A stretch of 45,624 bases of DNA from a virus: the UHGV virus genome UHGV-0133287. One strand, 5' to 3'. A program made the position numbers and the translations under genes. This document shows positions 19,922 to 41,432 of this stretch, piece after piece (the first letter of the stretch is position 1; each line of letters starts with the position of its first letter). The notes under the pieces were generated by a model. It was not told the origin of the DNA and ran no database searches. It saw only the letters and a list, made by a program, of their open reading frames with translations.

Positions 19922-20478
19922 TTTTTAACCGCCATAACACAACAGGTTAAAGAAAACTGTTTAACTTATTGATACTAAAAGAGAAAAATGACGATCTTTT
20001 TACTCATAAAAAATCACACAAACCAGCATAATCATCTGATTTTATTAAGTTTTTATAAGTAAAAAGGATCTTGATATGGTGTTTTGGTTAAAAGATTGGA
20101 TGTATTTGCATGATTTATAACGATTTTTATCAAAACAGCCTTACATTGGTTAAAGATCTGCGCGTATCTTGATGATCTAAAAGAAAATTCTCTACTTTCT
20201 TTTCACCATCACAAGCACAGCAAAAAATCACGTTTTCCCGATGTTTTTCAATGAGATGAGTAAATTTCTTTTACCGAAACTTTTAACCTAACTTTTTTCA
20301 CGTTTAGCTAGCCGAACATCGGGGTTCGAATGACCCGCATCCAACGCTTTTGGCCAGAAGGACCCAATTCTGCCGGACGATGAAACGATGCTCGTGCTCC
20401 CCCACAGACAGCCAGCGAGCGACGCTACAGAACACAGTGAATACACTCTGCATAACAACACCATCAACCACACGATGA

Positions 20479-24793: not shown

Positions 24794-24994
24794 TTAATGC
24801 TCGCGTCGTCCGGCGACAACTTCGGATTTGTATTTCAGGTCGCCCAGCAAGAATTGCAGTTTAAGCATCTTTGCCGCCGTGTAGTTCCCTGATTCCACAA
24901 CCTCTTTCATGAGGTCATAAACGGCCGCTACATCATCAGCCAGGAACTCTTTGCGTTGCTGCTCAGTCGCACGTTTGAAGGAAATACGCATCAC
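24794..24994 (-). CDS. hypothetical protein
   Basis: 66-aa ORF overlapping the upstream gene stop by 4 bp. Confidence 0.3.
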   Translation of the reverse strand: MMRISFKRATEQQRKEFLADDVAAVYDLMKEVVESGNYTAAKMLKLQFLLGDLKYKSEVVAGRREH

Positions 24995-25260
24995 TCATCA
25001 TCTCCTGCCGCACATACAACCTCACAAAAAACATCAGCGGAATGTTTCTCCTTGAACGAATGACGCTCAAAACCGCACTCAATATCAGGCGCAAAAACAT
25101 CCACCACATACGGTCTTTCAGAATGTTCGTTTTCCCAACGATAAACCGTAGTGACGTTGAAATGTTTTAACGCTTCACGGAACTCAACGCTGCCCGTCAG
25201 GTTTTTTGAGGTCAGGTATTGCAGGAGGTTTTTTACTACTTCACGGTCTTGTACTTTCAT
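24991..25260 (-). CDS. hypothetical protein (first gene after leader copy A)
   Basis: 89-aa ORF whose ATG follows GGAGATAACCCG at the end of the conserved leader cassette. Confidence 0.35.
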   Translation of the reverse strand: MKVQDREVVKNLLQYLTSKNLTGSVEFREALKHFNVTTVYRWENEHSERPYVVDVFAPDIECGFERHSFKEKHSADVFCEVVCAAGDDE

Positions 25261-25377
25261 CGGGTTATCTCCGGTTTAACCAGGGCGGGTATCGCTCGGT
25301 TTCGGGTATAACCATAGGAAATTTTTTCCCATCCGTAAAGCGCTTTTTATATAAATCTATAATTATATAATTCTATG
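25261..25377 (-). promoter_or_regulatory. conserved promoter/leader cassette, copy A
   Basis: About 115 bp nearly identical to 32437-32557 and 41314-41430. In the minus-strand sense it carries an AT-rich palindromic block (TATATAATTATAGATTTATATAAA), a TTTAC(G/A)-N17-TATGGT promoter-like pair, then a ~45-nt leader ending GGAGATAACCCG-ATG. Confidence 0.5.
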
Positions 25378-25960
25378 CCACTTGCCAGAGAGCATCATGC
25401 AACTGGATACCTCCATTGCACTGGTTGCCCCAGCCATGCCAGCCATCAGGTAAATCACCGCGAGCAAACAGCTCAATACGAGGAACATCACCTAACAGCT
25501 TTACCAGCTTGTCACGGACCACATCAGGCTTCCGAGAATGCTCCAGACGAGGCGATGTAAACGACTGAATGATCCCCGCATCAAGACGGGTCGGCAGTTT
25601 GCCTTTTACCGCAAACAAGCAATCTTCACTGTTTGCACGAGTCATATGCCCCATCCCCATCACCAGCTTATCTGGTTGTCGGCTACCACATTTGTTCCAT
25701 GTGAAGCCCTTCATGGTCATCAGCCTGAATCCCCATGCTTTAACCACCAGCAACGCTTCTTCTGGCTGAGTCGGAACCCACCACATGGCCAACAAACACG
25801 ATTCAGGATTAGCAAGCTGCCAGACAGGAATACGAGCAATCTCCTCAGCTTTCATCGTTGGATACTTAAAACCAGCTCCACGATTCCCATCCTTACACTT
25901 GTCTTTGTATTCCCAGGGGGGATCTGCATAAATCAGATTAAACAATGCAATTGCCTCCAT
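25373..25960 (-). CDS. DNA N6-adenine methyltransferase, MT-A70 family
   Basis: 195-aa ORF with N-terminal LIYADPPWEY (the DPPW catalytic motif). Confidence 0.7.
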   Translation of the reverse strand: MEAIALFNLIYADPPWEYKDKCKDGNRGAGFKYPTMKAEEIARIPVWQLANPESCLLAMWWVPTQPEEALLVVKAWGFRLMTMKGFTWNKCGSRQPDKLVMGMGHMTRANSEDCLFAVKGKLPTRLDAGIIQSFTSPRLEHSRKPDVVRDKLVKLLGDVPRIELFARGDLPDGWHGWGNQCNGGIQLHDALWQVA

Positions 25961-26267
25961 GTTAATTGTGCCTCCGGCGCTTATCTCCGGCAGTCATAAC
26001 GCTGGCCAGCTCTACAGCAAACACAACGAAAAGGGCACTAACCAGACTGATTAATGCCCTTGCCTGTTGTGTGCCGGATATCGCCCGACAACGCTGTTTT
26101 GGTAACACGGCTACAGTTCCGTGCCGCTCCAGCTTTTACCCCTTTGCGGATAACAGGCCCTGCCTGTAACTTAGCCCCACGTTCGCCCGAAATGCGCACT
26201 AGGCACGCATAAAGATGAGCACGAAGAAGTAACTCCACCGCGCTTATCTTTATGTGTGAGAGTGAAT

Positions 26268-26343
26268 TGGTGGCCCCTACCGGATTTGAACCGATGACCG
26301 TGCGATTATGAGTCGCCTGCTCTAACCACTGAGCTAAGGGGCC
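26268..26343 (-). tRNA. tRNA with CAU anticodon (Met or lysidine-type Ile2)
   Basis: 76-nt minus-strand sequence GGCCCCTTAGCTCAGTGGTTAGAGCAGGCGACTCATAATCGCACGGTCATCGGTTCAAATCCGGTAGGGGCCACCA folds by hand into a cloverleaf: 7-bp acceptor stem, GCTC/GAGC D-stem, CUCAUAA anticodon loop, TTCAAAT T-loop, encoded CCA. The 5' half resembles E. coli ileX as I recall it. Confidence 0.8.
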
Positions 26344-26512
26344 ATATTTGATTTGTTTGTCTGGTGTGGCGCCGCGCACGAAAATCCCAGCCAATAAATT
26401 CAGGATTTTTGGGCGCGGCGGCATATCAGACAAACATGGTTGATGCGTGCGCCCATGAGAAAAGCGCATAGAATGTTGTAACTATATATTTATATAATTA
26501 TAGAAATATATA

Positions 26513-26722
26513 TTACTTTGGACAGTTGATTTCCCATGCCCTGTTATGAGCCAGAATATCTTTCTTTGTCTGTCGGTCCATAACATCGATGTCGTGATCA
26601 GTCAGGTAGATGGGCTTTACCCAATCACAGGCGGTATCAACCACCACCGGGACGCTTCCACGACTCCCGCAGCTCGCGATCAACATCGTCATCAGCCATA
26701 TGGTTAACACTCTGCTGTACAT
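26513..26722 (-). CDS. o-spanin (Rz1-like lipoprotein)
   Basis: 69-aa ORF with signal peptide and lipobox LIASC; overlaps the 3' end of the Rz-like gene in another frame. Confidence 0.5.
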   Translation of the reverse strand: MYSRVLTIWLMTMLIASCGSRGSVPVVVDTACDWVKPIYLTDHDIDVMDRQTKKDILAHNRAWEINCPK

Positions 26723-26915
26723 TCCCCACCTCTTTTGTCACTTCTATACGCCGCTCCGCAGTGGCTTTTACGGCGGCTGCATTCTCATTAATGCGCTGCT
26801 TTTCAGCTTCATCTTCGGCCTTTTCTCGCCCCTTCATACGACCAAAACCAAACGCGCCAAATGCAACCAATATAATTGTGCCAATAAATGACAAAACAGC
26901 CTTCAAACCAGTCAT
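26637..26915 (-). CDS. i-spanin (Rz-like)
   Basis: 92-aa ORF with an N-terminal TM helix then a charged coiled-coil-like region; directly downstream of the endolysin. Confidence 0.5.
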   Translation of the reverse strand: MTGLKAVLSFIGTIILVAFGAFGFGRMKGREKAEDEAEKQRINENAAAVKATAERRIEVTKEVGNVQQSVNHMADDDVDRELRESWKRPGGG

Positions 26916-27454
26916 ACCACCACTCGCTCTTTCATCCAGCCGTAGACAAACGACTCATTAGCCTCGCGCTTCTCCGCCAACTCCAGATAGCGTTCGCCCT
27001 GCGTACAGTTCAGCGACGTCAGCATCACCCGTTCGCCGTCTTTTCCCCGATTCCCAAGATAAGCACGCAGCGCATTAATGGTACGTGGACCGATTCGTCC
27101 GTCTGCATCCAAATCGGGATACAGCTTCCCACGCAGGTTGAACACATTCAGCCAGCGTTGAAGCATTTTTGACGCCACTGTTGGCCCCATGTTGACGCCC
27201 GTGTCGCACAGTTCTGCGGCAATATCCGGCGACAGAGTTGCTATCTGGTCAAAACGTGGGCCGTACCAGTAATCAGCCTCAAGGATTTCCAGAGCCTGTT
27301 CGCGAGTTAAATCGCGCATATCGCCACGGTATCCATGAGCACGGGCAGTGTTCTGAGTAATGCCCCACTTTGTTGGGCCTCCCTTGTCGTCAGGGTGATC
27401 CACATAGCCGCCCTCTTTTCCAAGAACGCTGTTAAAAATCTCATCTTTGGTCAT
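26912..27454 (-). CDS. endolysin (GH108-type muramidase with PG-binding domain)
   Basis: 180-aa ORF with LGKEGGYVDHPDDKGGPTKWGIT, matching the GH108 EGGY...DPGG.T.YGIT signature. Confidence 0.7.
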   Translation of the reverse strand: MTKDEIFNSVLGKEGGYVDHPDDKGGPTKWGITQNTARAHGYRGDMRDLTREQALEILEADYWYGPRFDQIATLSPDIAAELCDTGVNMGPTVASKMLQRWLNVFNLRGKLYPDLDADGRIGPRTINALRAYLGNRGKDGERVMLTSLNCTQGERYLELAEKREANESFVYGWMKERVVV

Positions 27455-27773
27455 GATTAAACCCTAATGCGTCAACTATCCGCGCCAGATTGCCCCTGAA
27501 ATACAGAACAACGATGCAGATAATCAGATTTCCAATAACCACCAGCCAGTGGGATTCTTGATAAAGACCGAACACATAACGGAAGGGAACATTGGCGTAT
27601 ACAATGACGTAGATATAAGCCAGAAAGGAAACAAATGGACGATGCCTGGAGTCTTTCCGTCGATAAAGCATCAGCGCCATTACTATTACTGTGCAAAGCA
27701 CCGCATTAATCAGTGCTGACGGGTCACTGCTTACCATTTGAACCCCCTCCACGTAAGCGGGAAAGCATTCCAA
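27441..27773 (-). CDS. membrane protein in lysis cassette (possible holin/antiholin partner)
   Basis: 110-aa ORF with about three hydrophobic helices; overlaps holin 3' end and endolysin 5' end. An internal Met (MVSSDP...) may be the start. Confidence 0.4.
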   Translation of the reverse strand: MECFPAYVEGVQMVSSDPSALINAVLCTVIVMALMLYRRKDSRHRPFVSFLAYIYVIVYANVPFRYVFGLYQESHWLVVIGNLIICIVVLYFRGNLARIVDALGFNHDQR

Positions 27774-28119
27774 AGATGCTACCGAGATCCTGGCTGTTTA
27801 CGAACGTGAGGATTTTAATGGTCAATGCAGCCACAATAACCGCACCAAGCGCATCCAGAGGACGATCGTTGTAGCTGGTCCATTTGGCAAGAAATGAGCC
27901 AACTAACGGCGCTCCAATCACTCCAACAATGAACGATGTAAAGAAATAGCCAATCAGCTTGAGACGGCTAATATTCACCGCTGTAGCAACATAGAAAACA
28001 GCGCCAGCAAATGCCCCGAATACAACGCCGTAATCAATACCAGTTGCAATACCAAAAACGCTGGCACCCATCAGGCCACCAGCAGCAACGGCCGTACCGG
28101 AAATTGGTTCTGCTGACAT
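27724..28119 (-). CDS. holin
   Basis: 131-aa multi-TM Gly/Ala-rich ORF heading the lysis cassette; GAGGA RBS. Confidence 0.55.
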   Translation of the reverse strand: MSAEPISGTAVAAGGLMGASVFGIATGIDYGVVFGAFAGAVFYVATAVNISRLKLIGYFFTSFIVGVIGAPLVGSFLAKWTSYNDRPLDALGAVIVAALTIKILTFVNSQDLGSIFGMLSRLRGGGSNGKQ

Positions 28120-31013: not shown

Positions 31014-31312
31014 GCCACAGCCCCTCTCAACGGCTTAACTTTGGCTAATAAGGTGTTAAACAACATGGAGTTAGGATTCATGCCAAATGGCAATTCCGGT
31101 TTAGCGGAGTAGTACAGGCAACCATTTATTTTCCTGGTTGTTATCTGTCCTTCGGCAACCATGCTTCTCAGTCTGCAACGCATAGAGTTCTGCGACACAC
31201 CAATGTGCTCCGCGATTACGTCCACTTTTGAACATGGGTGATCGGTCAGGAAATTAATCACATCTTGGGGGTTAATAATTTTGCGTTTCATTGTCGAGGC
31301 GTCCTTATACAT
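31010..31312 (-). CDS. hypothetical DNA-binding protein
   Basis: 100-aa ORF preceded by the AT-rich palindromic motif at 31311-31337. Confidence 0.3.
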   Translation of the reverse strand: MYKDASTMKRKIINPQDVINFLTDHPCSKVDVIAEHIGVSQNSMRCRLRSMVAEGQITTRKINGCLYYSAKPELPFGMNPNSMLFNTLLAKVKPLRGAVA

Positions 31313-31336
31313 TTATATAAATATATAATTCTATAT

Positions 31337-31358
31337 ACGGCGGGAGACATCCCGCCGT
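31337..31358 (-). terminator. hairpin (possible attenuator) after the 355-aa gene
   Basis: Perfect 9-bp stem ACGGCGGGA-GACA-TCCCGCCGT followed on the minus strand by an AT-rich run that merges into the palindromic promoter motif. Confidence 0.35.
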
Positions 31359-31368
31359 AGGCTTACTG

Positions 31369-32436
31369 TCAGGCTTTCAATAGCGATTCTTTCAGATATC
31401 GGGCATCAGCCAGGGCGTTTGGAGTAATCTTGCGAACCCATGCATTACGGGTTGGACTCCACTTAAAGGCGCGTGATTTAAGCAGCGAACGAATGTTTGC
31501 CTCTGGTTTGCCAGGGAAATAAAACAGGATGCGGTTATCCTCTGGATCTATCTCCATAGAAAAGCCGTCGTATTCTTCGCGCTGTGCTCCTGTTACAGAC
31601 TTGACCGATTCAAGCTCCTTAATACGGCTCTGTAGTCGTTTGATTTCGGCGTTATTGTTGCTCAGTGCGTATGAAGGGAATCCGATGCGCCCACAGAAAT
31701 CTCCGGCCAGTAACTCTTTGGCTTCGCTTTCTGTAAACCTGAGATCGATTAATGCAGAAAGCTGCTGTAATTGGTCTTTTTTGTATTTGCGAATGGCCTT
31801 ATTTGCGGCCTTCATTTTGACGTGTGACTTCATGCAGCCTTGCAGCTTACGAAGCAACTTAAATAGCGCATCAGGATCATCAGACGAAATTCCATTACGA
31901 CCAACACCTGCGGCTTTGCTCTCGTAGTGTGATGCTTTACTTTCGCATTCAACAAACGCTTTTCTGAATAACGCATCAGCTTTAGACAAACGGCGGCGAT
32001 GGCCTTTCGCGCTATAATGGTCAACTAAAATCGGCTGGCCTAACGGGATCACATCCAACAGGTCATGCGCTCGCTTATGCGCTACCGCACCTTCTTTTCT
32101 GGCTTTTTCTGCACGAGCAATATATCGGGCAAGACGCGCGTTCTGGCGTTCCTGATAGGTGTTTACGTAATCATCTCCGCGCTGCTGCTGTTCAAGCCAT
32201 GCTTTGCGCAGATCTTCTGTTACGTCCACCAGCTCCGCAGGGATACAACCAGTTTGGGCTTCATAAGAGTAACCATCCTCATAGATACGCCCATCGTCTT
32301 CAACAAAGAAAAAGGTTTCGTGCTCATCGCTTTTGACCATACGACCATTAACATGGCGTAATAGGTAGCCAGTATCAGTGCTTAACAGGCTGTTAGGGTT
32401 GTTGATCCAGTCAGAAATAATTACTTGTTTATTCAT
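31369..32436 (-). CDS. hypothetical protein, first gene after leader copy B
   Basis: 355-aa ORF with a charged coiled-coil-like central region; possibly a DUF3560-like phage/plasmid protein (uncertain). Confidence 0.4.
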   Translation of the reverse strand: MNKQVIISDWINNPNSLLSTDTGYLLRHVNGRMVKSDEHETFFFVEDDGRIYEDGYSYEAQTGCIPAELVDVTEDLRKAWLEQQQRGDDYVNTYQERQNARLARYIARAEKARKEGAVAHKRAHDLLDVIPLGQPILVDHYSAKGHRRRLSKADALFRKAFVECESKASHYESKAAGVGRNGISSDDPDALFKLLRKLQGCMKSHVKMKAANKAIRKYKKDQLQQLSALIDLRFTESEAKELLAGDFCGRIGFPSYALSNNNAEIKRLQSRIKELESVKSVTGAQREEYDGFSMEIDPEDNRILFYFPGKPEANIRSLLKSRAFKWSPTRNAWVRKITPNALADARYLKESLLKA

Positions 32437-32557
32437 CAGATTTCTCCGGTTTAACCAGGGCGGGTATCGCTCGGTTTCGGGTATAACCTTAGGAAATTTT
32501 TTCCCACCTGTAAAGCACTTTTTATATAAATCTATAATTATATATTTATAGATTTTC
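32437..32557 (-). promoter_or_regulatory. conserved promoter/leader cassette, copy B (directly downstream of the Q-like gene)
   Basis: Near-identical to copies A and C over about 110 bp; begins 49 bp downstream of the Q-like gene stop. Confidence 0.5.
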
Positions 32558-36254: not shown

Positions 36255-36389
36255 CTGCAAGCGGGCTAACGCCCGCTTATATGATTATAGATTTATATAA
36301 TTATATAAAACGCTTTTCATCCGCCAAAAAGTTGGTTATGCTTACCTCGTTCTATAAATATAGATTTATAGAATTATATAATCAAACAC

Positions 36390-37058
36390 ATGGAGTCTCG
36401 ACAAATGACTATCTCTGTAGGTATTTTCAACGGAAAAGGCGGCGTAACCAAATCAACAATTGCCCGTGCTTTAGCAGTTGCTTATGCAAAGGCTGGCTGG
36501 AATGTATGCCTGATCGATATGGATGTGCTTAACGGAACGGTAACGCGTTGGGTACAACGCAGAATGGCCAACAATATCGAACCAGCAATCGCGGCGCAGC
36601 CGTGCGGCACACCATCACAAGTCCAGAAAATCATCGAATCAGAAGTATACGACCTGGTTATCGTCGATGGCGGTGCCTACGCATCTGAATCAGTACCGAA
36701 GCTATCTGAATTTCTGGATATGGTTATTTTGCCAACCCGATTCTCTACCGATGACCTGGAAACCACCGTTAACACTGCTCACGGCATCGTTAAAAAGGGT
36801 GTACCAATCAAGAAAATTTGCATGGTGTTTTCCGGCGCGGCTGAAAACGAAGCTGACTATATTGAAGCCCAAGAGTACCTGGCTAATACGCCATACTTTG
36901 TTGTCGATAAGTACATTCCCCACAAGCCAGCTCTGAGCAAAGCTCAGGATAAGGGCTTAAGCCTCATTGAGTGCTCATACGTTGCACCACGCAAAAAGGC
37001 AGACGACGTTATTCAGGGGATTATCAACCAGCTTGAGGCTCTGACTACTGCCGCGTAA
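36390..37058 (+). CDS. parA: ParA-family partition ATPase (small ParF-like)
   Basis: 222-aa ORF with a deviant Walker A (GKGGVTKST). Alternative start at 36405 (MTISVG...). Confidence 0.8.
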   Translation: MESRQMTISVGIFNGKGGVTKSTIARALAVAYAKAGWNVCLIDMDVLNGTVTRWVQRRMANNIEPAIAAQPCGTPSQVQKIIESEVYDLVIVDGGAYASESVPKLSEFLDMVILPTRFSTDDLETTVNTAHGIVKKGVPIKKICMVFSGAAENEADYIEAQEYLANTPYFVVDKYIPHKPALSKAQDKGLSLIECSYVAPRKKADDVIQGIINQLEALTTAA

Positions 37059-37093
37059 TATATAATTATAGATTTATATAAGAGGGGATACAC

Positions 37094-37562: not shown

Positions 37563-37586
37563 ATAAAAAAGGCCCCCGAAGGGGCC
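37563..37586 (-). terminator. intrinsic terminator (minus-strand; convergent transcription stop)
   Basis: GGCCCC-CGAA-GGGGCC hairpin preceded on the plus strand by an A run, giving a U run on the minus strand. Confidence 0.45.
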
Positions 37587-38456
37587 TAATCGCTACTTGC
37601 TGCTAATGTTTATCGTCACATTCAGAGCGTTATCAGTAATCTTCCAACCCTCCCCATGTGGCGTAAACAAAGCTCCAGTAACAACGATAAAAATACACAT
37701 ACAGTATTTTTTCATTGTGTGGCCCTTACAGGCCGTTTCACGGCATCTCCACCGACGAAAATGACGCGAGAGCAAGCACTCCGCTTGTGCTTGCGTGTAC
37801 GGCAAGTGGATGATCCTTTCCTTAAAGTCGGTGCCCGGGTGCGAATCGGCGAAAAGGCCCCAAGCCATATTACACGTCCTCGCCTTCATAATGAAGGAAT
37901 AACAATTGCTTTTATTACATGTAATTACATCCGAAGAAGTTAAAAAACTTCATTCTGCATGAACTAAGGAACTAAATTTCTTTATATGAATAGTGGACTA
38001 TTCACCTCAGTTGAGTAAGAATAGATACGCCGCTTGTGCTTGCGTGGTTGTTTACACAACGACGTTATGCTGAAAGGACCGCGAATCCGATCAGCACGAA
38101 AGAACCGTCCTCAATAGGGCGGTTTTTTTGTTTCTGCCTACCAATAAACCCACGCTATGTGGTTGTCTCTGTTAAAATCCCGCCGTATTGACATGAATGC
38201 GCCATTGGTGGACACTTTCCGAGCCGTAGCAAAATCTACGGTCGGGATTGGCGTCCCGATTGCACAATGGCGCATACCGCGTTAGCGGTTTTTTTATGCG
38301 TAAAGCACTGCTACACCCGAATTATGGTGGGGCGTGCGGGGGCGGAGAAATCCGCGCCGGTTTGTCATTGTGCCGGTTACGCCAACCCTGTACGTCTCAC
38401 CACCATATTGATTGGCGTCATTGGTGGTGATAGTTCCTTTAATCGGAGATATCACA

Positions 38457-38648
38457 ATGACAAACCTACCCCATGACTATTACGTCAACCTCGTAAAGAT
38501 CCTTCTCAAGAAAGCCTCATATGCCGATAAATTCCGCCTGGCTGAAATCATCGAGCGCGAAGCTATGCGCATCGCCAGCAACGATAACGCTGTTTCTGAC
38601 GCAAAAATCTCCCTCGTAACCAAAGTAGTTATGGGAGGTGCAAAATGA
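38457..38648 (+). CDS. small ORF translationally coupled to antirepressor (icd-like position)
   Basis: 63-aa ORF (ATG 38457, GGAG RBS) whose stop overlaps the start of the next gene (ATGA); the ORF track shows a longer version starting 38412. Confidence 0.35.
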   Translation: MTNLPHDYYVNLVKILLKKASYADKFRLAEIIEREAMRIASNDNAVSDAKISLVTKVVMGGAK

Positions 38649-39787
38649 AAACGCTTCCGACCGTTAACACCCTACAGCCTATCCTGCATAACCAGATCCC
38701 CGTTATCACTAGTGAACTTCTGGCGCAGTTATACGGAACAAAAATCAAAAACATTTCTGATAACTTTCTGAACAACACGACGCGATTCGTAGCCGGAAAG
38801 CATTACTTTAAAATTGAAAAAAACGAATTACGCGAGTTCAAGAACAGACCCGAAACAATCGGGTTAGTTGGTAAAAATGCCCGCTCCCTAATTCTCTGGA
38901 CCGAACGCGGGGCTGCACGTCACGCTAAAATGCTCGAAACCGATCAGGCGTGGGATGTATTCGAACGGCTGGAAGACTGCTATTTCAGCCAGAACGCGCA
39001 AACGGCCGCGACCGTAACCGTCTCGCCAAACAATGCTCGTGAGGTTGTCGATACGCTCAACGCCAAACCGATGTTTTACATTAAGGTGTGCAATAACGAG
39101 CCACTCACAACCTCAGCCGATGTTGCCCAGGCATTCAGCACCACAAACAATTCCATCGTTATGGCCATCGATGCGTTACGCATTCCTCGCACAGCTGCGG
39201 CGCGTCATTTCTTTAAAGAGCAACGACCGTTGGAAGGAAGCGACCGCGAAATAACAATCTATCGCATGACAAAAGACGGATTTACCTTGCTCATGGAGAG
39301 CATCGACGGTCCCGGCGTGAAAGATATCAAGCTGGCCTACATTGAAGCCTTTAACGCTATCAGCAGCGTGTTAAAAACACAGTACGAGCGCGATCTGGCT
39401 AAACGACTGTACCAGGAAAAAACGATTATCCGCGCGGCAACAGAGCATAATCGGCTATTAACGGAACCGAACTACAGGAAGGAACTAATCAAGGAGTTTG
39501 ACAAGGCAACAGGGAAAACCAAAGCGGCGCTAAATCTGCCAGCAATGACTCAGGAAAATGTGATATCAGCCTTACTTCTTGATCTACTCAGAAACGCCAG
39601 AGCACTTATCAGCTTTGACGAAAACCTGAATCCTCAACTCAAGCTACTACCACCGACAGGCAAAGTAGTCGACCAGGCTGATCACAACAGCATACTCAGC
39701 GTACTGGATGCAAACCTGCCAACCAGGACACTACAGGATCTGATAAAAACATGTGCTGATAAGCTGGCACAGAAAAGCAGACCATAA
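38645..39787 (+). CDS. putative antirepressor / phage regulatory protein
   Basis: 380-aa ORF whose N-terminal ~110 aa (ITSELLAQLYG...GAARHAKMLETDQAWDVFERLEDCYF) resembles anti-repressor N-domains; preceded by an about 700-bp structured leader. Confidence 0.45.
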   Translation: MKTLPTVNTLQPILHNQIPVITSELLAQLYGTKIKNISDNFLNNTTRFVAGKHYFKIEKNELREFKNRPETIGLVGKNARSLILWTERGAARHAKMLETDQAWDVFERLEDCYFSQNAQTAATVTVSPNNAREVVDTLNAKPMFYIKVCNNEPLTTSADVAQAFSTTNNSIVMAIDALRIPRTAAARHFFKEQRPLEGSDREITIYRMTKDGFTLLMESIDGPGVKDIKLAYIEAFNAISSVLKTQYERDLAKRLYQEKTIIRAATEHNRLLTEPNYRKELIKEFDKATGKTKAALNLPAMTQENVISALLLDLLRNARALISFDENLNPQLKLLPPTGKVVDQADHNSILSVLDANLPTRTLQDLIKTCADKLAQKSRP

Positions 39788-40932: not shown

Positions 40933-41313
40933 TTACTTAACGAGGAATAAAAATGGTTTATTGTTCGGCGGTGTAATCGGGGCTGGCTCGCTTTTGCTCA
41001 TGCGGTCAGTGTACCAGGCCAGCTCCTTGTCAAAGTAAGCCTGATTAAAATAGGCCATGAATGTGGTTTCAAATCCATAACGACCGCTAATACGCAGCAT
41101 CTGATTGCCGTTCTCTGTTTCCAGATATACCTGGGCACGCTCCTGATTCTCCTTCAGCCAGGTTAAAGCCTCATCGCACGAGGACACACGATACTCATCA
41201 TCGTAGCCATCATCGATGCGGCTTGAAGAAGAACGGCAAATCACGCCAACAGAACCAGCCAGGATAGTTTGAATTTTAAGGAAAGCGTTTTTGCGGATTT
41301 TAATCATGCTCAT
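40933..41313 (-). CDS. hypothetical protein, first gene after leader copy C
   Basis: 126-aa ORF following GGAGATAACCCG-ATG. Confidence 0.35.
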   Translation of the reverse strand: MSMIKIRKNAFLKIQTILAGSVGVICRSSSSRIDDGYDDEYRVSSCDEALTWLKENQERAQVYLETENGNQMLRISGRYGFETTFMAYFNQAYFDKELAWYTDRMSKSEPAPITPPNNKPFLFLVK

Positions 41314-41430
41314 CGGGTTATCTCCGGTTTAACCAGGGCGGGTATCGCTCGGTTTCGGGTATAACCATAGGAAATTTTTTCCCACCTGTAAAGCACTTTT
41401 TATATAAATCTATAATTATATAATTCTATG
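41314..41430 (-). promoter_or_regulatory. conserved promoter/leader cassette, copy C
   Basis: Near-identical to copies A and B, including the identical RBS/start context of copy A. Confidence 0.5.
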
Positions 41431-41432
41431 AG

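Follow-up and report, generated by a model that had tools for sequence, protein, structure and literature searches.

A tRNA-Ile2 gene in a phage-plasmid and its neighbour, a conserved inverted repeat that is probably a separate plus-strand hairpin signal

Genes for tRNA-Ile2 with the anticodon CAU are carried by the Escherichia coli chromosome (ileX and ileY) and by P1-type elements. A P1-like plasmid has a tRNA-Ile gene between an SPFH-domain gene and dnaB that is 94.7% identical to the one described here, and thus phage and phage-plasmid copies are already on record. Several known systems are built around hairpins. Phage RNase III hairpins, such as the T7 R sites and lambda sib, are long, imperfect structures with internal loops that lie between late cistrons, and GOLLD and ROOL are hairpin-rich, multi-module noncoding regions of temperate phages with an embedded tRNA. 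In the origin of transfer (oriT) of RSF1010 and the MOBQ family, a hairpin on one strand is followed on the same strand by a motif containing GTGCGCCC; the consensus of the MOBQ nick region is TAAGTGCGCCCTY (PMC3832669). The Frpo single-stranded DNA promoter displays its -35 and -10 hexamers in the stem of a template-strand hairpin, and orphan methyltransferase and ParB-like genes are typical cargo of plasmid leading regions (PMC11541004). Here we analyze the virus genome UHGV-0133287, a stretch of 45,624 nucleotides (called the window throughout), in which a tRNA gene and an inverted repeat, named M2, share a noncoding region of approximately 550 nucleotides (Table 1). From its gene content, the element is a temperate myovirus phage-plasmid of approximately 48 kb and of the IncFII-RepA/ParA type. 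Our explanation has two joint parts: the tRNA would be a functional Ile2 gene and M2 a separate hairpin signal of the plus strand. We hold it with a little better than even confidence.

ARAGORN called one minus-strand tRNA, with the anticodon CAT, and no other in the window. The gene scores 67 bits with the Rfam tRNA model, whose gathering score is 29; the cloverleaf is intact, and the 3' end ACCA can be read in the DNA. The first-pass annotation had described a complete 76-nucleotide tRNA with an encoded CCA, without naming a strand, and had asked whether tRNA predictors accept the fold; they do. It had also likened the gene to ileX and suggested a lysidine-type Ile2 identity, and the comparison agrees. 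Against the chromosomal copy of ileX, taken at its locus beside rpoD and mug, 68 of the 76 positions are identical (89.5%). The acceptor stem (GGCCCCU/AGGGGCC), the D-arm and the anticodon arm are the same, position 43 excepted, and the differences are limited to positions 43-44, a compensated change in the T-stem, and position 59. G27.A43 takes the place of G27.U43, and both A43 and C44 are found in the tRNA-Ile of the P1-like plasmid as well. The acceptor pairs C4:G69 and C5:G68, on which E. coli TilS relies (PMC11947777), are kept. The Prokaryotic Genome Annotation Pipeline (PGAP) names a 100%-identical copy on an E. coli plasmid tRNA-Ile, and it gives the same name to the 89.5%-identical chromosomal genes, which are present in all 5426 complete E. 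coli genomes. The identification as an ileX-type, lysidine-dependent tRNA-Ile2 is therefore well supported by sequence comparison. The ARAGORN label for the gene, tRNA-Met, goes by the anticodon alone. It could be cited for a reading in which the gene is an elongator tRNA-Met or a pseudogene, M2 is the intrinsic terminator of the lysis operon, or both. We find this reading hardly credible: the arms shared with ileX and the PGAP name speak against a tRNA-Met, the intact cloverleaf at 67 bits speaks against a pseudogene, and the terminator half fails on M2 itself, as described below.

As a gene, this tRNA is ordinary. Like the P1-type copies, it is borne by a temperate phage with AUA-rich genes; its site, a noncoding slot behind the lysis cassette of a 48-kb IncFII-RepA myovirus-plasmid, differs from the P1 context. 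One further phage record deserves mention. In Klebsiella phage ST13-OXA48phi12.1, a supposed phage tRNA-Met at 2505-2577 adjoins mug and rpoD. This is host ileX, lying where an integrated P2-like prophage ends, and therefore the deposited record probably includes host flank.

The first-pass annotation had proposed AUA decoding as the role of the tRNA, to be checked by codon usage. AUA makes up 15.8 per 1000 codons and 24.6% of isoleucine codons in the open reading frames (ORFs) of the window, compared with 3.2 per 1000 and 5.4% in a 50-kb sample of the E. coli chromosome scored in the same way. This approximately fivefold excess agrees with the proposal, and the highest values are those of tail and baseplate genes. 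AGA (9.7 per 1000 codons) and AGG (6.0) are also approximately fivefold above the E. coli sample, and the element has no tRNA-Arg.

No other inverted repeat in the window is as long or as good as M2. Its arms of 34 nucleotides are complementary at 29 of 34 positions (85%) and enclose a loop of 15 nucleotides. An inverted repeat at 26355-26430 with arms of approximately 29 bp had been noted before; it is real, although its extent was set too short. It had been placed upstream of the tRNA, which is right in the sense of the minus strand, the strand of the tRNA, and wrong in that of the plus strand. Folded as RNA, the plus strand reaches -53.5 kcal/mol (z -8.9 relative to shuffles) and the minus strand -40.3 (z -6.4). 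As DNA, the values are -33.8 (z -9.2) and -25.3 (z -6.3), so that the plus-strand hairpin of the window is 8.5 kcal/mol more stable. The base of the hairpin is joined to the tRNA 5' end by a short leader. Pectobacterium phages have a similar leader of 13 nucleotides beside their tRNA, and the match reaches position 26356 of the window.

The repeat had also been proposed as a terminator structure, and this is contradicted by its flanks. Although the stem is GC-rich, it is followed by AAUCAAAUAU on the minus strand and by UGGUUGAUGC on the plus strand, neither of which is a U-tract, and the terminator scan did not call M2 on either strand. We thus rejected M2 as an intrinsic terminator. Other candidate identities were also set aside. 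Rfam 15 gave no family match to M2 at gathering score or at E <= 1-5, and only generic microRNA-hairpin models matched, far under their gathering scores; known RNA families, GOLLD and ROOL included, were rejected on this basis. A dispersed REP, ERIC or MITE repeat does not fit, because each element has one copy and the repeat is confined to this plasmid family (70 of 5426 E. coli genomes, 61 plasmids in PLSDB, 10 contigs in IMG/VR). Scanning both strands of the repeat and its surroundings for sigma-70 promoters gave no hit, and by hand only 3-4/6 hexamers were seen. Comparison by hand with the consensus sequences of dif/cer XerCD sites and of the integron attC core (GTTRRRY) yielded no acceptable match, and the candidate bases are unconserved in relatives. 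The size and antisense polarity would fit the multicopy single-stranded DNA of a retron, but a reverse transcriptase was neither annotated nor detected. The GC-skew shows no inflection, contrary to a replication origin or terminus.

To place M2 and the tRNA in their family, the intergenic region was compared in five sequence types. The E. coli/Yersinia type comprises 21 near-identical variants from 37 loci, including 18 metagenome contigs; three types are from Salmonella plasmids (L004, L005 and L016/L097); and the L015 type is one IMG/VR contig. Two scans for homologues in genome contigs found nothing further, a metagenome scan found E. coli-type copies only, and the Klebsiella and Ewingella homologues of the MT-A70 methyltransferase have contexts unrelated to this locus. 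In the alignment, a backbone of the AT-rich box, M1, M2, M7, M8, M9 and M10 is present in all five types, and the interval between M2 and M7 is variable. It holds the tRNA alone in the E. coli type and 323 nucleotides of other modules followed by a tRNA-CAU in the divergent L015; the latter tRNA is 85.5% identical to that of the window, with an unchanged acceptor stem. The Salmonella types L004, L005 and L016 keep the AT-rich box, the repeat and the downstream modules and have no tRNA. Their slot contains a short stretch like the tRNA 5' end (GCCCCTTA..CAGTTGGAG) and then unrelated sequence; the resemblance, to approximately the first 20 nucleotides of the tRNA (GCCCCTTA-CCAGTTGGAG), lies at ~2815-2880 in L004 and L005 and at ~1990-2055 in L016. 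Because of this stretch, the alignment suggests that the slot originally held the tRNA and that the Salmonella relatives carry a later disruption of it. Conversely, the tRNA copies of the P1-like plasmid and of Pectobacterium phage Ymer have no repeat alongside. The repeat without the tRNA and the tRNA without the repeat together indicate that the two are neighbours by cassette arrangement and not one functional unit. On these alignments the noncoding region is modular, with cassettes, the tRNA among them, swapped between E. coli and Salmonella relatives.

The same comparison decides the remaining early proposal, that the repeat is a processing structure. A dedicated processing element linked to the tRNA fails on co-occurrence in L004, L005, L016, L015, the P1-like plasmid and Ymer. 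Incidental cleavage is another matter: M2 would form in the precursor RNA of the tRNA and may be cleaved there as a side effect.

One module of the variable interval, M4, lies in relatives and outside the window (L004 2680-2815, L016 1745-1880, L015 1845-1985). It is approximately 132 nucleotides long, nearly invariant between the Salmonella plasmids and L015, and has tRNA-like ends (5' GAGGCGUAUCCGAGCGG, 3' GGUGCCUCACC(A)) and a closing stem that covaries (GAGGC/GCCUC vs GAGAC/GUCUC). Neither ARAGORN nor Rfam made a call on M4, and its predicted fold is no better than that of shuffles. On this last ground we rejected a single large ornate RNA across the locus. The region resembles GOLLD and ROOL in being hairpin-rich, multi-modular and phage-borne with an embedded tRNA, but it has no match to them in Rfam 15 and its modules resemble separate hairpins rather than one ornate fold.

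Across the five types, the 34 pairs of M2 are 84.7% paired, and seven pairs are changed on both sides. This level of covariation was reached by 0 of 500 shuffles, and slid controls gave at most two. An outer segment (GTTTGnCTG) and an inner segment (CGAAAATCC) are conserved in sequence, and the middle covaries. M2 belongs to the backbone of this phage-plasmid family and is kept as a hairpin through compensatory change. The conserved segments, together with the adjoining dispersed AT-rich motif that resembles a protein-binding site, would suit a double-stranded palindromic operator for a dimeric regulator. We consider such an operator very improbable, because a duplex site needs neither a complementary variable middle nor a strand asymmetry of mismatches. 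The middles of the arms vary yet stay complementary by double changes, the mismatches are clearly asymmetric, and the conserved 9-mers recur in the rest of the window no more often than chance predicts.

The asymmetry is the evidence on which the polarity of M2 depends. On the tRNA strand there are 0 G:U pairs and seven A.C cells, which are G.T on the plus strand, and all remaining mismatches are pyrimidine-pyrimidine, that is, purine-purine on the plus strand. All 170 cells (170/170) are therefore either Watson-Crick or disruptive A.C or pyrimidine-pyrimidine on the tRNA strand. The mismatch classes are G.T, G.G, G.A and A.A on the plus strand versus A.C, C.C, C.T and T.T on the tRNA strand. 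Among mismatches in general, stability is highest for G.T, G.G and G.A and lowest for A.C, C.C and C.T. Folded as RNA, the plus strand, antisense to the tRNA, is more stable in 5/5 types, by 3 to 13 kcal/mol. M7, M8 and M9 served as an internal control; for these, 12 of 15 comparisons favor the tRNA strand, with margins of approximately 2 to 15 kcal/mol, and the modules are maintained through many G:U pairs on that strand. This preference does not hold for the truncated M7 of the window or for M8 of L015. Genome-wide, the skew enriches the tRNA strand in G, and mutational bias therefore predicts the opposite of the M2 pattern. Since the plus strand tolerates the mismatches well and the tRNA strand poorly, we infer from the alignment that M2 is selected as a single-stranded hairpin of the plus strand, which is antisense to the tRNA and the late genes.

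The main competitor is a hairpin in the sense, minus-strand transcript, as a 5'-leader or inter-cistronic double-stranded RNA element. It would act in RNase III cleavage, stability or antitermination and would part the lysis mRNA from the tRNA and late RNA. M2 indeed stands on the transcribed strand of the late block, 10 nucleotides upstream of the tRNA, with an AT-rich box containing TATAAT directly upstream. The sense fold reaches -40.3 kcal/mol (z -6.4), and the neighboring M1 hairpin and M7-M9 behave like sense-strand RNA structures. The order of box, structured RNA, terminator and late genes recalls the PR'-qut-tR' region of lambda. In its length, imperfection, internal loops and place between late cistrons, M2 is also like the phage RNase III hairpins, but its mismatch pattern argues against selection for pairing in the sense RNA. 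The tRNA strand shows neither G:U pairs nor one-sided changes that preserve pairing, the antisense fold wins in every type, and M2 is uncoupled from the tRNA in relatives. M2 forms in the late transcript whatever its selected form, and we regard a role in sense RNA as a serious though rather unlikely alternative.

In our preferred explanation, a functional tRNA-Ile2 and a separate plus-strand signal, the tRNA would occupy the variable slot between the lysis cassette and the MT-A70 gene. It would be transcribed from the minus strand, either together with the late block or from a promoter close by, and this transcript would stop at the terminator at 26021-26072. RNase P and 3' trimming would release the mature tRNA. 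The host TilS would convert C34 to lysidine, isoleucyl-tRNA synthetase would charge the tRNA, and the capacity for AUA decoding would be raised for phage genes that use this codon approximately five times as often as E. coli. M2, for its part, would be selected as a single-stranded hairpin of the plus strand, with DNA likelier than RNA because M2 has no conserved plus-strand promoter upstream. A plus-strand antisense RNA was set aside as unlikely on this ground; on that strand, the upstream sequence is the variable cassette region. The single-stranded plus-strand form points to a signal of the replication or transfer type, and neither a terminator nor a dedicated tRNA-processing site. A single-strand DNA signal is our best guess for M2.

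Several points weigh against this explanation. For the tRNA, expression, lysidinylation at C34 and the benefit to the phage are our inferences. For M2, the explanation presupposes some process that exposes the plus strand at the site, and the ORF scans and the PGAP annotation gave no nickase, relaxase or HUH protein for the window. R1 replicates unidirectionally, following the direction of repA transcription. If the IncFII-type replicon does so here, the plus strand at this site would be the leading-strand template and unfit for a lagging-strand priming site. M2 inevitably also forms in the sense late transcript, at -40 kcal/mol, and it lies directly downstream of an AT-rich box that is a possible promoter. 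Finally, only five sequence types are available, three of them close Salmonella relatives, so that the covariation and the asymmetry rest on few independent events.

Another rival takes M2 and the GC-rich motif beside it for an orphan oriT or for a MOBQ/HUH-type nick site as used in rolling-circle replication. The hairpin would lie on the nicked plus strand and the nick 3' of it, and a co-resident relaxase would mobilize the phage-plasmid. Such a site would let an element that has no relaxase be mobilized by conjugation, or replicated, by a nickase acting in trans. The hairpin is strand-specific for the plus strand, and 7 nucleotides 3' of it on the same strand begins TGCGTGCGCCCAT, which agrees with TAAGTGCGCCCTY at 10 of 13 positions. 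The chance of such a match is approximately 0.004 per 45-nucleotide stretch, but the match is post hoc and several other families were tried first. GTGCGCCC occurs only twice in the window. The core of the motif is kept in relatives, but these reach only 8-9/13 and have the register shifted by two nucleotides. RSF1010 oriT, whose sequence was confirmed at 100% in plasmids typed as mobilizable, has the same order of repeat and GTGCGCCC, and in both the 3' arm ends in AAAC(A/C). It differs in its arms (10 bp vs 34 bp in M2) and in the spacing from repeat to GTGCGCCC (3 nucleotides vs 10 here). Moreover, no relaxase or HUH domain is found in the scanned ORFs or the PGAP annotation, PLSDB and MOB-suite type 61/61 of the plasmids as non-mobilizable, and the lysis genes would enter the recipient first. 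We regard the orphan nick site as unlikely, and the MOBQ-like motif as a weak lead.

The Frpo promoter and single-strand initiation (ssi) sites offer another comparison, with a template-strand hairpin upstream of orphan methyltransferase and ParB-like genes in each case. Here, however, the AT-rich box is on the wrong side for an UP element, and the element is a phage, which injects double-stranded DNA. An Frpo-like promoter was rejected, since the arm at 26403-26436 has no hexamer pair better than 3/6 + 3/6 and the promoter scan gave 0 sites.

The window is collinear with E. coli plasmid NZ_CP032259 across 92% of its length at approximately 98% identity. The tRNA/repeat region is 98-99% identical to the Yersinia pestis myophages vB_YpM_39, vB_YpM_41 and vB_YpM_44 and is also matched by 47-52-kb E. 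coli plasmids; a literature search on the three phages found no paper. The flanking region is present in 70 of 5426 complete E. coli genomes (~1%), nearly always on plasmids of 47-52 kb. Both the window and NZ_CP032259 encode an IncFII-family RepA, ParA, a repressor of the HTH/S24 type and a RelE/ParE toxin; in both, the head module is lambda-like and the tail contractile. Neither has an integrase gene. The phage-plasmid lifestyle explains this absence, and the tRNA as the remnant of an attachment site is therefore dropped, as the first-pass annotation had already argued; collinearity with 47-50-kb IncFII RepA/ParA plasmids adds to its case. Its placement of the tRNA within the late operon is also sound, since the gene lies between the lysis cassette and the methyltransferase, ParB-like and terminase genes on the same strand. 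The family name pSLy3 would be wrong, since the pSLy3 group is SSU5-like.

Table 1. Features of the tRNA/M2 locus and of related sites in the window.
Feature	Position	Strand	Basis or remark
tRNA-Ile2 gene, CAU anticodon, ileX type, 76 nt with encoded CCA	26268-26343	minus	ARAGORN, Rfam, ileX homology
Leader AAUCAAAUAU, 10 nt, single-stranded, from hairpin base to tRNA 5' end	26344-26353	minus	sequence
M2, long conserved hairpin	26354-26436	plus-strand form favored	arms 26354-26387 and 26403-26436; loop 26388-26402
M1, short GC-rich hairpin and motif, conserved GGGCGC core	26437-26468		invariant alignment columns
M1 motif TGCGTGCGCCCAT	26444-26456	plus	contains GTGCGCCC at 26447-26454
AT-rich box	26469-26512		one of 8 dispersed copies
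M7, hairpin directly 3' of tRNA	26204-26258	minus	stems covary between types
M8, conserved noncoding stretch, ~125 nt	26073-26197	minus	no codon periodicity
M9, long terminator-like hairpin with U-run	26021-26072	minus	sense strand favored
M10, invariant 60-nt leader of methyltransferase gene	25961-26020	minus	
Noncoding region, ~550 nt	25961-26512		between Rz1 and MT-A70 methyltransferase
Lysis cassette, upstream of tRNA locus	26513-28119	minus	
Holin	27724-28119	minus	PHROGs; PGAP annotation of plasmid L003
Holin	27441-27737	minus	PHROGs; PGAP annotation of plasmid L003
Endolysin	26912-27454	minus	PHROGs; PGAP annotation of plasmid L003
Rz	26637-26915	minus	PHROGs; PGAP annotation of plasmid L003
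Rz1	26513-26722	minus	PHROGs; PGAP annotation of plasmid L003
MT-A70 DNA methyltransferase gene, downstream	25373-25960	minus	PHROGs E = 2.7e-102; PGAP
Small uncharacterised genes, ParB-like genes, terminase	downstream of MT-A70 gene	minus	
AT-motif sites 1-4	25346-25371, 26481-26506, 31304-31337, 32521-32546		
AT-motif sites 5-8	36284-36309, 36350-36382, 37058-37082, 41399-41432		
isrK and P1-type C4 antisense RNA matches	38223-38295 and 38320-38407	plus	Rfam

Of the remaining modules, M7 in the window is the truncated base of a stem-loop of approximately 150 nucleotides seen in relatives, and the full-length versions of the four relatives fold better on the tRNA-sense strand. The small hairpins of M8 are kept via G:U changes on the tRNA strand. 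M9 was hit by the terminator scan (26061-26031, minus strand) and has an extended stem with compensatory pairs; it is the probable 3' end of a short transcript containing the tRNA. A rydB-like match at 25963-26018 (minus, 28.9 bits; L004 3244-3307, 25.7 bits) falls below the gathering score of 50. It falls in the invariant 60-nucleotide stretch directly upstream of the MT-A70 start codon, and this stretch is conserved in 5/5 types.

Within the AT-rich box, relatives share TAGTTACAACATTC (26471-26484, minus strand) without change, and 8-bp units TTATAKAW lie at 26481-26506. The scanner found no sigma-70 consensus promoter in the box, which is likely a protein-binding or promoter element. The motif recurs: 8-bp-periodic units TTATA[G/T]A[A/T], with the palindromic form TTATATAATTATATAAA, have 29 matches in the window against 0.29 expected, clustered at eight intergenic sites. 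Three of these flank parA and the following 82-aa ORF, and the box beside M2 is also a member. By this distribution, a single DNA-binding protein seems to have its operators, or sites of a centromere-like kind, dispersed over the element. A repeat of approximately 120 bp occurs three times in the window (25256-25377, 32432-32549 and 41310-41430), with the same three copies in plasmid L003. Read on the minus strand, it consists of an AT box, a conserved 60-nucleotide leader (AAGTGCTTTACAGGTGGGAAAAAATTTCCTATGGTTATACCCGAAACCGAGCGATACCCG), approximately 25 nucleotides and a start codon; the genes that follow are ORF 24991-25260, a DUF3560 gene (31369-32436) and ORF 40933-41313. It is a candidate for a shared promoter and 5' untranslated region.

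Two other places in the window were noted. Rfam matches above gathering score to ryfA (37565-37862, minus strand, 135 bits), isrK (67 bits) and the P1-type C4 antisense RNA (75 bits) adjoin the upstream side of an ORF6N/Rha-domain gene at 38645-39787, and this clustering suggests an immI-like antirepressor control region. The second-longest inverted repeat (19996-20066, with AT-rich arms of 31 nucleotides, 77% complementary) sits in a 556-nucleotide gap upstream of the ParB/Srx, small-terminase and large-terminase genes. Because the deposited Yersinia phage genome record begins and ends inside the same gap, it is a possible cos or packaging region.

For the tRNA, the codon-supply rationale is the standard one, and the fivefold AUA excess backs it here. 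M2 is to be treated apart from the tRNA gene: the hairpin is conserved in the family, shows compensatory changes and has a strand asymmetry of rare cleanness. If it is indeed a single-strand DNA signal for transfer or priming, the view of how widespread phage-plasmids typed as non-mobilizable spread would have to be revised. Should the less probable orphan nick site prove true, transduction and conjugation would be linked in one 48-kb element that is found in approximately 1% of complete E. coli genomes.

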